Below, piece by piece: positions 4,985 to 12,643 of a stretch of DNA of 64,000 nt (positions within the stretch are counted from its first letter, which is position 1; every line of letters begins with the position of its first letter). Source of the DNA: Nitrososphaeria archaeon (GTDB lineage Archaea; Thermoproteota; Nitrososphaeria; JACIWG01); the NCBI GenBank assembly GCA_050011875.1, contig JBEKIG010000004.1, positions 196,028-260,027 on the forward strand. The letters are read 5' to 3'. The notes below the pieces were generated by a model. It did no database searches. It was not told the origin of the DNA and saw nothing but the letters and a program-made list of their open reading frames with translations. A program made the translations under genes and the position numbers.

Positions 4985-6320
4985 GGAAAATCTAGAATTT
5001 GGACAGGGAAGCGGCCAGGCATCAAAGGAGGCTGTAGGCACTAAGAGAAATTCTAAATCGGTTATTAAAACGACTATCTTAGTATTTGCAACACTTGTCG
5101 TACTGAGTCTGCTTTTTTTCTACGTCGGTTCGAACTTGAGTCAAATTTTTTGGGGCAAATTTTTCATGTACTTATATTATCCGATATCAGGCATTATCAT
5201 TGTCGTTTATACAATAGAAATGTTTGGTCAGTTCTTTGAAGGCGATTTTGTTAAGGCCATATCCAACCATATAGAAGTCCCGGTTATGGTGGTCACCTTT
5301 ACGCTTACCCTGTTCAACCCCCAGATCGTGTTCCCCGACTCCTACAAGACTGCAGGGTATTTGATCATCGGCACAGTATTGGTTTGGGCCACCCACAGCA
5401 TAATAAAAACTTATTCGAAGATCGCGAGCACCTTCACGTTCGCAGCTCTACTCACAATCACCGGATATATGATAAAGACAATAATAGAATCCTATATGGG
5501 TTTAAATCTGGATCTACCTTTTTCACCCGGCAACATAGTTTTCTACTGCTTTCTAGCAACTGCTGCTCTATCATTGTTATCCTTCTTCAAATACTCCAGT
5601 AAAGACTACCTTTACTATATCGGAAACAAGCTGAGCAGCTACACCGTATTATTTGGCATAGGGGTTGTTGCATTCTTTGTTCAGGTATACCTGCTGTACA
5701 TCAGGCCTTCCTTTCCAGCATCGATTTCTCCGTATCTTTTAGTCGCCGAATGGACCGCTGTCTGCTGCATTTCATTCGCGGTCTTCAAGAGTGTGAGAGA
5801 CCATCTCTTGAGTGTCTCACAGACCTTGAAGTTTGGCGAATGGAGTGTGCTAACACAGAAGATAACCAACAAGAAGGAGGAACTAAACATTATGTCGGAC
5901 TTCATTGATGACGGAAAAAAGGAACGCCTGTTAATGCTAATCTCCCATATCCTTCTTTCCAACGACATCCCATATAAGATCGGTGAAGAAGCAATAGGAG
6001 AGCTTGTGCAATACCGCGACCCTGAACCTCCAAAGATCGTATCAAAGCGTATGGCTGGAGAAATGAGAGAAGAGAATAGAAGAAACAGGCAGAGGATACT
6101 GGAGAAGACGCTCAAAACCGTGGAAGATGTCATCAACAAAAACTATCTTTCGAATAACGATAGGCAATTCATAGAACCGGGTGAACTTCCGGATAGTTCC
6201 AATGTATTGAAAAGATGCAGCCAGTGTGGAAAGGAATATCCAGTAAGGTTTGGAGAGTGCCCATTTTGTTATGTAAGAAAGGCTTCCCCAAGAGTATATC
6301 TTCCTGAAGAATATATCTGA
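4968..6320 (+). CDS. Multi-pass membrane protein with C-terminal zinc ribbon
   Basis: About 8 TM segments and CSQC...CPFC. Start chosen at ATG 4968 to minimise overlap. Confidence 0.75.
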   Translation: MQEKIRENLEFGQGSGQASKEAVGTKRNSKSVIKTTILVFATLVVLSLLFFYVGSNLSQIFWGKFFMYLYYPISGIIIVVYTIEMFGQFFEGDFVKAISNHIEVPVMVVTFTLTLFNPQIVFPDSYKTAGYLIIGTVLVWATHSIIKTYSKIASTFTFAALLTITGYMIKTIIESYMGLNLDLPFSPGNIVFYCFLATAALSLLSFFKYSSKDYLYYIGNKLSSYTVLFGIGVVAFFVQVYLLYIRPSFPASISPYLLVAEWTAVCCISFAVFKSVRDHLLSVSQTLKFGEWSVLTQKITNKKEELNIMSDFIDDGKKERLLMLISHILLSNDIPYKIGEEAIGELVQYRDPEPPKIVSKRMAGEMREENRRNRQRILEKTLKTVEDVINKNYLSNNDRQFIEPGELPDSSNVLKRCSQCGKEYPVRFGECPFCYVRKASPRVYLPEEYI

Positions 6321-6408
6321 ATGTGCGGTTTTTAATTCTCGGATATTAACCTATCAGAAACAATAACTATATTTGAATGAAACATATAAGAATTGATTTA
6401 ACGTATAC

Positions 6409-7335
6409 ATGGGGATGAATGCTAGACCTATCAGTACGTATTCGATAATTGCGATAAGTAAAAAAGAAAATTTAATGGGCGTAGCGGTGCAATCGCACTG
6501 TTTCTCCGTTGGTTCGGTCGTTCCCTGGGCTGAATCAGGTGTAGGAGTCGTTGCAACCCAGTCGAGGACTGAACCTAGTTACGGCCCCTTAGGCCTGTTT
6601 CTTATGAAAGCTGGCATTAGAGCAGGAAAAACGCTTGAGGCGCTTTTAACAACCGATCCTAAAGAAGACGTTAGGCAGGTTGCTATGCTGGATACAATTG
6701 ACGGAATAGCGGCGCACACAGGCACCCAATGTATTCCTGAGTCAGGACATCTAATAGGGGATGACTTTAGTGTTCAGGCTAACCTAATGAAGAGCAAGGA
6801 AGTTTGGCCTGCTATGGCTTCCGCTTTTAGAAGGAGTGGAGGAACTTTCATGAGACGGCTGATGTCCGCTTTAGATGCCGCTGAAGACGTTGGAGGCGAC
6901 ATTAGAGGAAGACAGTCCGCTGCGATGCTTGTCGTAAAATGTCGGTCAACAGGCATACCTTGGGAAGATAAGGTCATCGACCTAAGAGTAGAGGACCATC
7001 CTGAGCCGCTTAAGGAACTCCACAGATTGATAACAATCAGCGAAGCCTACGAGATTAACAGCATTGGAGACGACTTGATCGCACAGGGAAAGGTCAAAAA
7101 GGCAATCAAAGAGTACAGGTTGGCAAACAGGAAAGCGCCAGAGATATTGGAGCTTAAGTTTTGGCAGGTGGTATCATTGCTCAATAGCGGCAACTTCGAA
7201 ACCGCAAGGGAAATCCTCAAAGATGTTCTGGCCGCCGACAGAAGATGGAAGAAGATTCTGTTATCTCTTCCCCGACCAGCTATACTATCTGTGGATGAGG
7301 AAACCCTGTATAAAATTGTAAACGAACCTAGATAG
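6409..7335 (+). CDS. DUF1028 family Ntn-hydrolase-like protein with TPR-like tail
   Basis: TYSIIA, GVAVQSH, GVVATQS, GGDIRGRQSAA and DLRVEDHPEP motifs. Confidence 0.9.
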   Translation: MGMNARPISTYSIIAISKKENLMGVAVQSHCFSVGSVVPWAESGVGVVATQSRTEPSYGPLGLFLMKAGIRAGKTLEALLTTDPKEDVRQVAMLDTIDGIAAHTGTQCIPESGHLIGDDFSVQANLMKSKEVWPAMASAFRRSGGTFMRRLMSALDAAEDVGGDIRGRQSAAMLVVKCRSTGIPWEDKVIDLRVEDHPEPLKELHRLITISEAYEINSIGDDLIAQGKVKKAIKEYRLANRKAPEILELKFWQVVSLLNSGNFETAREILKDVLAADRRWKKILLSLPRPAILSVDEETLYKIVNEPR

Positions 7336-7870
7336 GATATCGCTGAAATAAACGAACAAAGAATTATGTATTTGCGGCCAACGAACCGTGAACCTCAGAC
7401 AATGTTGGCACCAAACGTCTTTTGTCTGGTATAGTTGACGATGAGCTTCCGGAAGGAAGCTGTACCAAGGTGACCTGGGATAGTTATTAAGGTAAAAGAA
7501 CGTACAAGTACCTAGTGCAAGATCGTCCTTGATAAGCACTCCAACTAGGATATTATACGGAATAATCCTTAAAAGTAAAGAAGATGTAGATAAAAAAACT
7601 GATAATATGGCTCAAGGTCTCCTACGAAGCTTCTTAATCATAAAGAAAGAAAGGAACTGGAAACGGCGTCTATGCTTCATCAGCAGTTAAGGAGATCTTC
7701 AGGGCTTTCATACAGGTCACAAAGTATTCATATCTCCCGTTTGGGCTTCGAGTTCCCTCTCCTTACTAAATTCATCTCCCAACTCATTTAGCCAAAATCT
7801 CGGCTGCGATTTTTCCTAAGTCAGATGTACCCCGATAAGGGCACATTACGCAAGGTCATAGAGCAGATGT

Positions 7871-8014
7871 ATGAGGTATTTTAAAAAGAATGATGATTTC
7901 ATCACATTATTCATCTGGATTATCGGAGTTGGTTCCGTAGTCGTACTTATCTGTGCGATAGCGTACTTCCTGTTATCGGTACGGGGCAAAAGGAGCTATT
8001 TCCTGAATTGGTAA
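7871..8014 (+). CDS. 47-aa single-TM small protein
   Basis: Manual translation: MRYFKKNDDFITLFIWIIGVGSVVVLICAIAYFLLSVRGKRSYFLNW*. Confidence 0.45.
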   Translation: MRYFKKNDDFITLFIWIIGVGSVVVLICAIAYFLLSVRGKRSYFLNW

Positions 8015-8148
8015 ACGGTCTTTTAGGTCGTTTCAAGTCCAAATTTACCTAAAAAAAATAGTGCAAAAACATACGATTTTTTTACCATGAAACGAGTCTG
8101 GCACGACGTCGCCGTGCCATTTACTAATGTGGTAAACGTAAGGGACAC

Positions 8149-8182
8149 ATAACCAGTTTGGTTATATAACCAGTTTGGTTAT
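8149..8182. repeat. Two tandem copies of the 17-bp palindrome ATAACCAGTTTGGTTAT
   Basis: Exact copies at 8149-8165 and 8166-8182, with arms ATAACCA/TGGTTAT. Confidence 0.95.
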
Positions 8183-8185
8183 ATC

Positions 8186-8386
8186 CTAAATATTGCCCTT
8201 TCGATATAAATCTTGTTTTAGATTCTTCAGCTCGTTCAAAGTAGTTAGAATGTTCTTTTGTATGGCATCCTGGTTCCCACACACCTGCTTGAACTGAGCC
8301 TTCTGATCAGCAAATAGAGCGTTCACTGTCTTGTTCTGCTCACTTATTGAAGCCAGAATCAGAAGCTCCAGCTCCCTATCGGACAA
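8186..8386 (-). CDS. 66-aa helical hypothetical protein
   Basis: ORF track; amphipathic/coiled-coil composition; TTG start. Confidence 0.5.
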   Translation of the reverse strand: MSDRELELLILASISEQNKTVNALFADQKAQFKQVCGNQDAIQKNILTTLNELKNLKQDLYRKGNI

Positions 8387-8407
8387 CTTTCCAAAAATTA
8401 AAACTGA

Positions 8408-8610
8408 TTGAGCAAAAAAATAATTTTAAATTTGGTTTGGCTCAACACGTTTTAAAACAAAATGCTAACGATAACTATTTCCCGTTGGCTCAACTTAAAT
8501 GCGTTCTGCATGAGAGCGATATGATGCACGATATTGCACAGGGACATCAGAACAGGGCCAGATGCAGAATGTTTATCGATAGCATTTCCGATTTTTTCTG
8601 TTTGAGCCGG
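8408..8610. repeat. ~204-nt structured repeat, copy A
   Basis: Aligns with 8941-9145. Shared blocks are TGCATGAGAGCGATATGATG and TAGCATTTCCGATTTTTTCTGTYTGAGCCGGA. Confidence 0.9.
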
Positions 8611-8650
8611 AATTAGCCCAGTATTATCTAATGATATTATATAATGATAT

Positions 8651-8675
8651 TTTATAATCCAATTTGGGTTATAAA
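8651..8675. repeat. Palindrome TTTATAATCCAATTTGGGTTATAAA
   Basis: 12-bp arms with one mismatch; core related to the 8149 and 9199 palindromes. Confidence 0.8.
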
Positions 8676-8689
8676 CATTAACCATTAAT

Positions 8690-8862
8690 GGTAATTTTGT
8701 TTTAAAGCGAACATTAAACGTTTTTTCATCCGGCCCCGTTGCAAACATTAACTATTTTAGGATAGTTTCTTCTTCTCGAACGTGTATCCCCTCATCTTCT
8801 ATTTCTTTATAGTCTCTTGACGCCAGCAGAACCCAGATATCTTCCATTGATTTCTCCTCCAT
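8690..8862 (-). pseudogene. Small ORF with in-frame TAG (MEEKSMEDIWVLLASRDYKEIEDEGIHVREEETILK*LMFATGPDEKTF...); 3' end uncertain
   Basis: Manual translation from ATG 8862. TAG at 8754-8752 is in frame with track ORF 8452..8748. Confidence 0.4.
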
Positions 8863-8940
8863 ATTTTATTATAATGGGATCCATAAAAGTGATAAAAGCA
8901 GGTCTTATGTCATCTGGTACATTTATCAATTTAAATTAAT

Positions 8941-9145
8941 TTGAGCCAAAGAACAATTTGCAATATTATGTTCGGCTCAAATCATTTTTAACAAAATTGC
9001 TAACGTTAACTTTTTCCTGTTAGCTCAACTTAATATCATCTTGCATGAGAGCGATATGATGTTCAATTGAGCTCTGAGGGATCATACCGAGCTAACAAGT
9101 AGAATATTTGGAGTTAGCATTTCCGATTTTTTCTGTCTGAGCCGG
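8941..9145. repeat. ~204-nt structured repeat, copy B
   Basis: Paralog of 8408-8610 at an offset of 533-535 bp. Confidence 0.9.
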
Positions 9146-9198
9146 ATTTAAAAATCTTAAAACGCACTGGCTCAATGCGTTTTTTTGTTCAGCTATTT

Positions 9199-9219
9199 AC
9201 TTAACCAATTTGGTAAAGT
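9199..9219. repeat. Palindrome ACTTAACCAATTTGGTAAAGT
   Basis: 10-bp arms with one mismatch; TAACCA-RTT-TGGT core. Confidence 0.8.
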
Positions 9220-9291
9220 TTCTTGGATGTTAGGTTGACTAAGTTCCCATATCATTGAAAAGTTTTAATGTAATTTTTGTGATTATTTTTA

Positions 9292-9690
9292 TTATTGTTT
9301 CAACTTCTCTATCACAGACTCAATCGTCTCTACGACTGTTGTTTCATTCCTCAAACCGAGTATAACAATCTTACCTGATGCATAAAGAAGGGTTGTAATA
9401 TTCTTATTAAGTTTAAAAATGGCACCTGGAAACTGTTCTGGTTCATAGATTACATTATCCAGCCTATTCGCTACTTTTTCAATGTCAATCATGCTCCCAA
9501 TATCTGCTAACACAACGATGTTTCTGACTTTAAAATTTGAAGGAATAACAATACTATTAATCACTCTATGGACCTTTAATATTTGAATACATCGATCCAA
9601 GTCATCCGAAGATTCAATAACACTTTTTGAACCAAAGAATTAATGAAAAAAGAATTAGAATACGACCCTTGGAGCAACTGATTTAACGTT
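9292..9690 (-). pseudogene. tbp: TATA-binding protein paralog, intact second repeat and decayed first repeat
   Basis: NIVVLAD...YEPEQFPGAIFK...LLYASGKIVILG. Upstream FGSKSVIESSDDL is in frame, preceded by a stop and a frameshifted KGRILI. Confidence 0.85.
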
Positions 9691-9919
9691 ATTCTTTGAA
9701 TATCAAATTTGAAATTAACTATTACATTAATGCTTAAACCTATAAGAACAATTTTTAGAATAAACTTGATAGACTATATAAAATCTTTTTGAAATTCATT
9801 CTTTTTATGTTCTTGGCAAAAGCTAACAAACCAAGATTGTTTAAGTATCTTTACTACTTTTTGGAGGGGTAATTCCTACTCTATTTTTTATGTGTAGATT
9901 ATTATAATTTTTTATCAGC

Positions 9920-10189
9920 AAAAGATGTAATAGGGACTCGAACCCATTTAGGTATGAATCGCGCCTGGTCCACTCGATTGTTGGTATTACCTGAACCAGT
10001 TTAAGGCCTCGGCACCAGGGTGTTAACTGCTAAATAGTGTAGATTAGGGGTTTAAAGAGGGTTTAAACCGCTTGTCTTCCTGAGCTTGGAGTTATTTTAA
10101 CAGGATTTCCACCTTAATTAATTGGGGAATCGAACAAGGTAAGCTTGATCCAGCATCTATAGTAAGTACACACAGCAGACTGTTTACAT
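9920..10189 (-). ncRNA. Candidate structured non-coding element, copy 1 (conserved core 9976-10189)
   Basis: About 92% identical to 59337-59551, with several hairpins and no conserved ORF. The repeat is certain; RNA status is inferred. Confidence 0.6.
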
Positions 10190-10259
10190 TCTGGTTTGAA
10201 TATCAACCTAATGTAGTTCAACTTTTTGTAAAAGACCGTAATGATGTTCTAAACCTAAG

Positions 10260-10541
10260 GTGAGAAACAGAACTAAAATTGTAATTGTTGTTGTTATTGT
10301 CCTACTCGTAGCTGTATATTATTCTCTAAGCACGTTTGAAATTAGTACTGTAGACTCCAACCCAACAGGGAGGTACTATGAACTGTCTGTTTATGATGGA
10401 CAGGCACAGATAGCTTACGTTTCAGTCATATTGTCTAAACAAGTCTATAGAAACAATGCTTTGAAGATAGCTAATGGGTTGCTGGAAGATGGTGCGCGTT
10501 TTGCAGTTGGAATCGATGGCTTTGACAGTAAAATCAATTGA
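10260..10541 (+). CDS. Small secreted/membrane-anchored hypothetical protein
   Basis: Basic N-terminus followed by a hydrophobic stretch; 93 aa. Confidence 0.6.
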   Translation: MRNRTKIVIVVVIVLLVAVYYSLSTFEISTVDSNPTGRYYELSVYDGQAQIAYVSVILSKQVYRNNALKIANGLLEDGARFAVGIDGFDSKIN

Positions 10542-10560
10542 ATAAAGACAGTTCTGGCGA

Positions 10561-10905
10561 TTATGCTATGTAAGATACCATGTTCTGAAATTTTGGGCAC
10601 CAATTTGAGAATTCGCATACATCCTTAATTTTACAGAAAGTAAGGTCATTCGAATACATCGAATCATAGTTCTTACACTGGTTCCAAGGCTCTATCACTC
10701 CTATTCCATAAAAACAGAGCCTCAGCCTAGACAACTTCTTTAAAGAGATAGGCTCCTTAGTTTCCCAGTCCCATGCCGGAATCTTAACTACTCTATCTTG
10801 GAACCTTATTTCAATGAACTCGCCTGCCTTTAAAATCTTTCTTGCATCAATTGGCACCTTCACCGACGCCATAGCCCATTTTTTGCATGACCGACAACAC
10901 TTCAA
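10561..10905 (-). CDS. Cys-rich hypothetical protein
   Basis: CCRSC at the N-terminus and several C-terminal Cys residues; 114 aa. Confidence 0.6.
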   Translation of the reverse strand: MKCCRSCKKWAMASVKVPIDARKILKAGEFIEIRFQDRVVKIPAWDWETKEPISLKKLSRLRLCFYGIGVIEPWNQCKNYDSMYSNDLTFCKIKDVCEFSNWCPKFQNMVSYIA

Positions 10906-11080
10906 CTAGGATCACATCTAAACTCCTAATAGTGTGTAAGACAAAGATAAAATCCTTTTTGCAGTTAATATAAATCCGTTCAGAATAGTTCAGACACTTG
11001 AATAGAATATATTTGAATATGGAGAGTAACTCCTTTCCTAGACTTGCTTCCGTTGCTTTTTAACTACATCATATAAATAT

Positions 11081-12643
11081 TCAGTGAGACTGACTTTGGA
11101 CATCCACATCCTTTCTTATCCTGCTCTTTTCGATATCCAAACCATTCCATGTTATTGAATAGCCCAGAGCTTCGATTACCTGGTACGGTTCTTTTATGTT
11201 GTTTGCTTCAACAGCCTCCAACGCTTCAGAGAGCTTCTCTATCCCCATTAGACTAGTTTCTATTTTTTTTAGAACTGAGTCGGATATGAAGTAGTCACCA
11301 ACCCTCTTGTAGCCTTCGAAGGTTAGGGTTGAAAGAACCTTCCTGGCAGATTCGACACTAATCGAATTACCTCCTGCTATGTCTTCTATTTTTACTATAT
11401 CACCTGCCAATTTGATGTCCCTAAGCTTTGATGCATGAGACTCGTTTTCGATAACACCTTTCTCGCGCTCCTTTAAGTGTTCTATTATAGGCTTGATCGA
11501 CACATCATCCTTATAGTATACGACTTGGATTTTTAGGTCGCGGAGTCTAGAGCACGCGTACTTTTCATTCACTGCGACAATTAAGTCGACATCTTCCACC
11601 GTTTCAAGCTTTGCGATCTTTCTTTCAAGATAGTCTGGGGTCCAGAATCCAACGATCTCCAAGTACACCTTCATATTGTATTTCGTAAACCTGAAGTCAG
11701 GTATCAGCACATGTCTGCCCACAGGCAGAGGTTCAGGCTCTCTTTCGAGCACCCATCCGGAGCCGTAAGCGTTGAAGGTTTTGGCAAATCGTTCTTCAAC
11801 ACTGCTATCATATGTCTGTTTGGATGGTGTGTCTTCTGATCCAGTGCTCTCGATCAACCCCTTCATCTCATCGCTGGTAAGTTTGAATGTGTAGATTCTG
11901 TCTTTGTTCCTTCCCAGTACATCAGCTTTAATCCTCCAATAGCCCGATTCGATCACCGTTAGTAGAAGTTTCGCCAGCGCTGTTCCATATCTGTCGGTCA
12001 TTTTAAAGAGCGAAAGTGGGCCGTCGACAGTTACCTTATAACTATCGTCCTCACGTTCGACCGCATACATTAAGCCCAACCATTTAATAGATCTGAAGAT
12101 GCTCTTCCAATTTCCTGAAACTGTGAACTCCAGCTTTAGGGATCTAAAGAGCATTGTCTGCGTTATTGAAAGGTTGTAAGACTTCAACAACGCATCCGGC
12201 GATATTGGACTGAAGTCCTTTAGGATCAGTTCTTCTTCGACGTCGGAATATAGTACTTTTTCAAGAGCTTCAGCATGTATGCCAAGCTTCGCTGAGACTT
12301 CTTGGATAACTCTCCCCCTTTGCTCAACGTCCACTACTCTGACGTCGCTTGCCTTTTGGAACACCATCATCCTGGCTTCTGCGGGATCGATAGGCGCATC
12401 GGATTTAAACACACTTCGCCTTTCGAGAAGAGCGAACAACCCTCTTACGAACCTGTAATCGAAGCCTTCATCTTCAAGGGTTCTCAGCTTTTCCATCATC
12501 TCTCCCTTCCTTCTACCCACATTGTTTCTAAAGACTTCAATAACCCGTCCAGCGAAGTTCAAGTCGCCTTCTTCCAAATGCGCGTATACGGGGTTAACCT
12601 GCCCATGTGAAACTCTAACCCTTAGAAGGTCATATGCAAGCGT
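11081..12643 (-). CDS. bax1: Bax1 / DUF790 family endonuclease
   Basis: IPDF...YLEIVGFWTPDYL PD-(D/E)xK motif, and located downstream of XPB. The frame extends to an ACG at 12643 (xLAYDLLRVRV). Confidence 0.9.
   Translation of the reverse strand, partial: TLAYDLLRVRVSHGQVNPVYAHLEEGDLNFAGRVIEVFRNNVGRRKGEMMEKLRTLEDEGFDYRFVRGLFALLERRSVFKSDAPIDPAEARMMVFQKASDVRVVDVEQRGRVIQEVSAKLGIHAEALEKVLYSDVEEELILKDFSPISPDALLKSYNLSITQTMLFRSLKLEFTVSGNWKSIFRSIKWLGLMYAVEREDDSYKVTVDGPLSLFKMTDRYGTALAKLLLTVIESGYWRIKADVLGRNKDRIYTFKLTSDEMKGLIESTGSEDTPSKQTYDSSVEERFAKTFNAYGSGWVLEREPEPLPVGRHVLIPDFRFTKYNMKVYLEIVGFWTPDYLERKIAKLETVEDVDLIVAVNEKYACSRLRDLKIQVVYYKDDVSIKPIIEHLKEREKGVIENESHASKLRDIKLAGDIVKIEDIAGGNSISVESARKVLSTLTFEGYKRVGDYFISDSVLKKIETSLMGIEKLSEALEAVEANNIKEPYQVIEALGYSITWNGLDIEKSRIRKDVDVQSQSH

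Follow-up and report, generated by a model that had tools for sequence, protein, structure and literature searches.

Genes and Features of the Locus

The window, that is, the whole 64-kb stretch of DNA that was analysed, carries two diverged copies of a repeat in the same orientation, set among small genes. A repeat search of the window aligned copy A (8430-8615) with copy B (8965-9150) over 186 nt at 74% identity, without gaps and at a spacing of 535, in agreement with a preliminary description that had placed a duplication here. MAFFT alignment of both copies also recovered the two blocks singled out in that description, one identical at 20 of 20 positions (TGCATGAGAGCGATATGATG) and one identical at 31 of 32, ending with GAGCCGGA; the divergent segment that separates them has the same length in both copies. 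The words it had named are likewise present in the sequence, namely TTGAGC/GCTCAA, GCTAACG with CGTTGGC (copy A) or TGTTAGC (copy B), and GCGTTCTGCAT/ATGCAGAATGT in copy A. The similarity of the copies is far beyond chance, with 11 places in the same genome matched by BLAST at E <1e-30 and 15 copies recognized by R1, a covariance model built from 20 copies. As a whole repeat unit, copy A spans 8397-8672 (+; extent from the alignments, nhmmer hit C4:204427-204695) and comprises a 5' hairpin, a 181-nt core and a sub-family 2-type tail ending in the palindrome CCAATTTGG; its core, an imperfect long hairpin, occupies 8434-8614 (+; R1 match C4:204461-204641, 175.5 bits). Copy B spans 8930-9217 (+; nhmmer hit C4:204964-205242 and alignments) and has the usual sub-family 1 tail, while its 181-nt core (8969-9149, +; R1 match C4:204996-205176, 176.1 bits) contains stop codons in all six frames.

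In nine copies of the family, the element lies at the right of a roughly 1-kb cassette that also contains a membrane-peptide gene, a covarying hairpin (8100-8118) and a gene of 66-91 aa on the opposite strand. The membrane-peptide gene lies at the left end of the cassette (7871-8014, +) and encodes a small hydrophobic product with the core ITLFIWIIGVG...AYFLL; its frame is conserved in eight copies, with 156/92/163 differences at codon positions 1/2/3. This product is reminiscent of type I toxin peptides. The E. coli LDR and SIB/QUAD type I toxin-antitoxin repeats are also intergenic repeats of a few hundred nucleotides that combine a small hydrophobic peptide gene with a structured non-coding part, but in the present family the core hairpin does not lie antisense to the peptide gene, which is itself absent from many copies. 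The hairpin at 8100-8118, GGCACGACGTCGCCGTGCC, has conserved flanks and a stem that varies yet stays complementary (GGCTCC..GGGAGCC, GGCACC..GGTGCC).

The opposite-strand gene encodes 66 aa in the cassette of copy A (8186-8386, -) and 72-91 aa in other cassettes, with 414/286/630 codon-position differences across seven copies. Its protein family carries the motif KLSDRELELLILA, has no Pfam match and forms only two clusters among 5.8 billion proteins; a 91-aa relative appears in one source under the name 'CsgD family regulator'. The list of open reading frames places a 36-aa ORF (8752-8862, -) in the interval that separates copies A and B, with related sequence beside the copies C7b and C4_55k, and similar short ORFs sit directly 5' of other copies. 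Directly past copy B, within the variable region, a 102-aa ORF (9292-9600, -) holds a single TBP repeat in one stretch (PF00352, E 1.5e-20), which is half a normal TATA-binding protein.

Coding Potential of the Core

The core is non-coding, as judged by codon-position substitutions and stop codons. In its open plus-strand frame, pairwise differences number 451/500/344 at codon positions 1/2/3, and stops interrupt this frame in 9 of 20 copies and the co-phased minus-strand frame in 15 of 20. The two neighbouring genes, 8186-8386 and 7871-8014, served as positive controls and display the coding pattern in the counts given above. The non-coding character assigned in the preliminary description is thereby borne out, and the decayed coding duplication that it had raised against itself is disfavoured, with codon position 2 changing most and position 3 least. 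Decay of a duplicated small protein gene, corresponding to a plus-strand ORF of 54-89 aa, would agree with the absence of indels from most cores and with a frame that stays open in 10 of the 11 copies of sub-family 1; against the substitution pattern, the interrupted frames and the lack of a Pfam match for either overlapping ORF, this origin is highly improbable. The plus-frame stops, moreover, often coincide at one TGA, to which the word TTGAAC/TTGAGC gives rise. The ORFs 8347-8616 (+) and 8452-8748 (-), which overlap the element, should not be annotated as genes.

A Dispersed Family Restricted to One Genus

The notion of a local two-copy duplication did not survive genome-wide comparison by covariance model and BLAST, which places both copies in a dispersed family with 15 full-length members. 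Within this genome (2.64 Mb, 119 contigs), BLAST with copy A found 11 places at E <1e-30 and 74-92% identity, and a profile search (nhmmer) returned 17 hits below 1e-20. The R1 model located the 15 full-length copies on nine contigs, plus a rearranged copy on contig C22. At 74-92% identity to copy A, the copies are old. In the one congeneric genome compared, R1 detected eight copies, and in eight genomes of four other genera of the family and order (68-95% complete) it detected none, with which BLAST concurs. Across these genomes, one congener and eight from four other genera, the repeat family is restricted to one genus.

Broader collections were scanned with a pattern of the core. The genome collection yielded nine stretches, five of them in one Nitrososphaeria MAG and confirmed by the model, and four bacterial (L036-L038, L044) that are pattern matches only. 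Metagenomes also yielded nine stretches, of which seven hold eight copies whose bit scores equal those of this genome's copies and thus add no diversity, while two (L104 and L105) have no match to the covariance model. The element was not found in plasmid and phage collections. The stretch itself is present in five public DNA runs, all of them peat metagenomes, and no RNA run is listed as containing it; contigs from the DNA runs are short pieces whose joints match other genomic copies, and among them no excision form could be assigned to the window locus. Descriptions of interspersed structured repeats from uncultured archaea of soil and peat are scarce; among the papers listed by a literature search, none contains the MITE phrase, and no title or abstract deals with such repeats.

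Modular Architecture of the Repeat Unit

The shared core measures 181 nt, exactly so in 19 of 23 copies and within 179-182 nt in all 23. It is embedded in a 250-450-nt mosaic of common modules, which include a 5' hairpin, a tail with a hairpin and a T run, TTWACC-N5-GGTWAA palindromes and further shared stretches to the right. The alignments reveal that the modules around the core differ by sub-family and are shuffled among copies; copy A is itself a mosaic of a sub-family 1 core and a sub-family 2 tail. In copy B, the tail hairpin AAAACGC..GGCTCAA..GCGTTTT (9159-9186, +) precedes a run of seven T read from the plus strand; the terminator scan lists this hairpin on the minus strand (9183-9159). 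It is conserved among sub-family 1 tails. The tail ends in the palindrome TTAACCAATTTGGTAAAG (9200-9217), which has related sites at 8121-8137, 8149-8182 (two copies) and 8657-8672. The TTWACC-N5-GGTWAA pattern occurs nine times in the genome vs about one expected, and these sites, recurring through the cassettes, may be operator-like. The stretch 8149-8182 consists of two exact tandem copies of the palindrome ATAACCAGTTTGGTTAT.

Each unit contains five to seven instances, in both orientations, of one word of 7-10 nt, which reads GGCTCAA or, in part of the copies, TGTTCAA. These instances change in concert between GGCTCAA-type and TGTTCAA-type copies, and this extends to the instance m7 in the loop of the tail hairpin. 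Inside the core, the most conserved block is TGCATGAGAGC (8507-8517, +), which is unpaired or forms at most a 3-bp stem; in the alignment of 20 copies, every position of it (columns 74-84) is either invariant or conserved to 90% or more. A second block (8537-8548, +; columns 104-115 of alignment A2) reads CACAGGGACATC in copy A and CACAGGGGGATC in the family consensus. Two rearranged copies break beside TGCATGAGAGC, and the rearranged pieces on C22 have breaks after CATGAG and before GATC, adjoining conserved blocks. With the internal blocks TGCATGAGAGC and CACAGGGG.ATC almost invariant and core indels nearly absent, the conserved core length and the two near-invariant blocks suggest a constraint that goes beyond the arms.

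Predicted Fold and Covariation

The fold predicted by RNAalifold for 20 copies is a long hairpin in which three helices are nested (columns 3-11/172-180, 29-40/142-153 and 54-58/121-125). This structure pairs in 92.8% of cells as against 77.5% in shuffled alignments, none of 500 shuffles being as high; changes on both sides of a pair affect 106 cells vs 40 in shuffles, and slid controls pair in 27-39%. Complementarity is strongly kept by compensatory change between sub-families. The 5' strand of the outer helix (8436-8444, +) pairs with 8603-8611 in 96.7% of cells, with four of nine pairs changed on both sides. In the middle helix of 12 bp, ATGCTAACGATA (8462-8473, +) pairs with TATCGATAGCAT (8574-8585) in 89.2% of cells; all 12 pairs have changed on both sides, and several show three Watson-Crick types.

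A further hairpin lies at the 5' end of copy A (8408-8445, +), where word instance m1, TTGAGCAAAA (8408-8417), pairs with m2, TTTGGCTCAA (8436-8445). Across 11 copies it pairs in 94.4% of cells, with three of ten pairs changed on both sides, and its slid controls pair in 25-48%. Because m2 belongs both to this hairpin and to the 5' strand of the outer core helix, the two structures are mutually exclusive. That one short word should form several mutually exclusive helices, with all of its instances changing together, is an unusual pattern. Taken singly, the core of copy A folds at -51.1 kcal/mol (z -3.14), and individual sequences fold better than shuffles on both strands (z -2.2 to -4.3), as is expected of any inverted repeat.

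The individual stems named in the preliminary description fared less well than the complementarity they stood for. Complementarity is indeed kept family-wide, but across 20 copies the supported helices are mostly long-range and other than those named. The local GCTAACG/CGTTGGC hairpin pairs in only 61.4% of cells in these 20 copies. The GCGTTCTGCAT/ATGCAGAATGT stem pairs in 79.5%, with none of its ten pairs double-changed and 43 of 500 shuffles reaching that level.

The 53-nt segment between the identical blocks had been regarded as variable and possibly guide-like. Across 20 copies it holds the conserved blocks CACAGGGG.ATC and GAGC, and it also contains the 3' arm of the 12-bp helix, the changes of which are matched in the 5' arm. 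In C/D sRNAs, box C (RUGAUGA) and box D (CUGA) lie near the ends. Copies A and B do contain ATGATG and CTGA/TTGA words, which would favour a guide RNA of the archaeal box C/D type whose guide segment varies, but the supposed box C varies, with GTTGAGG, GTTGATG or ATATGAA at this site in other copies (alignment A2, 20 copies), the supposed variable segment is part of a covarying helix, and the element is about three times as long as a usual archaeal C/D RNA. The Rfam check proposed earlier gave no match at gathering score in the 64-kb window; the best sub-threshold match reached 26.1 bits vs a cut-off of 70, rows at E up to 10 being at chance level. The sole sub-threshold snoRNA among them is of an H/ACA family and lies outside both copies (8275-8327, -). 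The guide-RNA reading is rejected on the unconserved box site, the covarying segment and the empty Rfam result, its probability being practically nil. A tRNA scan of the window found no genes.

Folding Strand and the Nature of the Folded Molecule

In the three main helices of 23 copies, G.U (in DNA, G.T) pairs outnumber A.C pairs by 42 to 11, and over all predicted pairs of 20 copies by 58 to 12. This excess points to the plus strand as the one that would fold, in a structure predicted on that same strand from related sequences. Oligo-T stops archaeal RNA polymerase, and runs of five or more T were counted in 22 copies, leaving aside copy C10b, whose locus is cut by a contig end. On the plus strand such a run lies inside the core in all 22, usually as 6-9 T at position 158. 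On the minus strand it does so in 9 of 22 and in none of the 11 copies of sub-family 1, where a run of 5-8 T follows about 20 nt beyond the core in nine of 11. Taken together, the G.T excess and the T runs fit folding of plus-strand DNA better than a full-length plus-strand RNA. The folded single-stranded DNA site offered as an alternative in the preliminary description would be a slightly better fit than full-length RNA.

Changes private to single copies within a sub-family are as frequent in helices (0.17-0.33 per column) as in loops (0.19-0.29). Starting from Watson-Crick pairs, 21 such changes gave eight mismatches, six A.C and seven G.U pairs; with these few events, the private changes look like neutral drift of single copies.

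A structured non-coding RNA family, consisting of small RNA genes or of cis-acting leaders of the small cassette genes, ranks second among the explanations and is possible rather than probable. Strong covariation of the long-range helices and of the 5' hairpin that competes for m2, near-invariant unpaired blocks, a core length held within 179-182 nt and the concerted change of the word instances, m7 before its seven T included, would all suit an RNA, as would the G.U excess on the plus strand. So would the arrangement of small genes, one of which starts on the minus strand directly beside the element in at least 12 of 23 copies, and the T-free minus-strand cores of sub-family 1 with a run placed just beyond. 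The strand signals conflict, however, G.U pairs pointing to the plus strand and T runs to the minus strand; T runs lie within the core on the plus strand throughout and on the minus strand in part of the copies, the helices are not spared by private substitutions, and Rfam has no matching family. Moreover, the copies show no consistent orientation relative to larger flanking genes and sit in variable, mosaic regions. In this reading, the RNA would fold into the covarying helices and switch between the mutually exclusive word pairings m1/m2, m2/m6 and m6/m7, thereby gating termination at nearby U runs. If transcribed, the family would constitute a new archaeal RNA family of switch-like design.

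Genomic Setting and Search for a Mobility Partner

The copies are located in variable regions, which are not alike in the two species. At the window locus, the flanks 5002-7357 and 10423-12500 match the congener in collinear order at 95-96% identity, while the intervening 3.07 kb (7358-10422), which contains both copies, gives way there to 10.4 kb with other genes, among them transporters and a metal-regulator-like ORF. The congener lacks the 929-nt cassette that holds the C15 copy, its site being otherwise collinear and the flanks abutting; this single junction, the only clean filled/empty comparison, has no clear direct or inverted repeat, and no direct repeat there exceeds about 3 nt. The C7b locus has 1285 nt vs 384 unrelated nt in the congener. 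At C6, identity to the orthologous copy is 93% over the initial 84 nt of the core, past which the two diverge. An empty-site search in this genome for the copies of genome G009 gave rearranged breakpoints only. The family provides clear markers of genome plasticity in the genus, with copies bordering regions that differ between species.

A 4.3-kb island abuts the diverged C6-orthologous copy (L053 1714-5873, G009:C19) and encodes membrane proteins and a 455-aa DNA methyltransferase-like ORF. Two further ORFs of this island look, by eye, like fragments of IS6-type transposases. A likeness of the element's arm to IS6 ends had suggested an IS6 origin. In this genome such an origin is unsupported, the loci of its three IS6-like genes (PF13610) in the 119-contig assembly carrying no element sequence and having unrelated ends. 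A Y1/RAYT link is equally unsupported, given that the sole Y1 transposase gene of the assembly (PF01797) is not flanked by the element and also has unrelated ends. Four tyrosine recombinase matches (PF00589) were found, none beside an array of sites; one of them, on C16, is some 2 kb away from a cassette, so that one of the 15 copies is near such a gene.

A Mosaic Foldback DNA Repeat as the Most Likely Reading

The most likely reading, held tentatively and short of even odds, is a mosaic foldback DNA repeat of MITE/BIME-like type, whose hairpin serves its own spread or recombination. The family would accordingly represent genus-specific, interspersed, modular foldback repeats, like MITEs and BIME/BOX elements, with no known transposase partner. 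In such a scheme, the hairpin would be what the element needs to spread or recombine, and it would probably be read on one DNA strand, the plus strand as written, by a candidate recombinase or transposase. Lineages still spreading would keep the fold, while single inserted copies would drift. The 42 G.T against 11 A.C pairs, which indicate one folding strand, are counted in favour of this DNA reading. Counted against it are the lack of a target-site duplication or terminal inverted repeat at the clean C15 insertion, the lack of an autonomous partner, and old copies with a near-fixed core length and invariant blocks. A further point against it is that the inverted arms covary but homology between copies continues outside on both sides; since homology extends beyond them, the arms are not the ends of the repeated unit.

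With MITEs, the element shares a small size, non-coding sequence, multiple copies, long foldable inverted arms, sub-families, presence that differs between close species and the apparent neutral drift of single copies. It differs from them in that no target-site duplication was found at its insertion, homology runs past the arms, no parent insertion sequence has the same ends, and its internal blocks and core length are unusually conserved. REP/BIME, BOX, Correia and ERIC repeats are likewise intergenic, hairpin-forming, lineage-specific and built of shuffled modules, with tens of copies per genome, but the present family is archaeal, its core is far longer than a REP, and the Y1 (RAYT-type) gene is unflanked. 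Should the element be a DNA site, it would point to a system of recombination or transposition that has so far escaped recognition.

Resemblance to Integron Recombination Sites

Sites of the attC type in integrons are about 55-140 nt long, are conserved in structure only and have R''/R' core sites of the form RYYYAAC ... GTTRRRY. On the minus strand of 8186-9600, genes and elements alternate, with the TBP-like ORF, copy B, the 36-aa ORF, copy A and the 66-aa gene in succession and all genes in the same direction, and a similar pair of copies lies at C4:55882-56646. This arrangement would suit a folded single-strand recombination site, integron attC-like, between small co-oriented cassettes, as would the position of the G.T excess on the strand opposite to the genes and the 5' arm, where GCTCAAC or GTTCAAC fits RYYYAAC. 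The 3' arm, however, reads TTTGAGC or ATTGAGC ([AT]TTGAGC) and not GTTRRRY, the 181-nt core with its conserved interior departs from the length and the structure-only conservation of attC, homology between units is unbroken at the arms, and the PF00589 search with its four matches identified no integron-type integrase. Most copies are also solitary, the exceptions being the tandem pairs in the window and at C4:55.9-56.6 kb and the two rearranged pieces on C22. An attC-like site of this kind is consequently a long shot.

Archaea, Thermoproteota included, are reported to carry attC clusters that lack an integrase (PMC9668308), which would favour this reading. With integron attC sites and such clusters, the present repeats share an imperfect palindrome, a possible strand bias and, at two or three places, an alternation with small genes of one orientation; they differ in length, in their conserved interior, in the non-canonical 3' core, in being mostly solitary and in the lack of an identified IntI. 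A folded recombination site in single-strand DNA that is of a new kind, with its own architecture and a candidate recombinase, would be a distinct though improbable case. It would amount to an archaeal integron-like system in non-ammonia-oxidising Nitrososphaeria, shuffling cassettes that encode the membrane peptide, a small HTH-like protein, the half-TBP and others.

Other Features near Copies of the Element

On C16, a tyrosine recombinase gene and four small ORFs of unknown kind are followed by a cassette with a copy of the element (L099 5061-9197; G000:C16:75060-79196), and together they may form a small integrated element. Two additional repeats occur in the window. A 155-nt repeat at 7400-7553, which matches neither tRNA nor Rfam families, recurs at 86% identity on C11 (22190-22343) next to another cassette. 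A second repeat family of about 205 nt is represented at 9974-10178; the congener has at least four copies of it at 90-94% identity, contig depth is raised at the window site, and one copy also flanks the C15 cassette.
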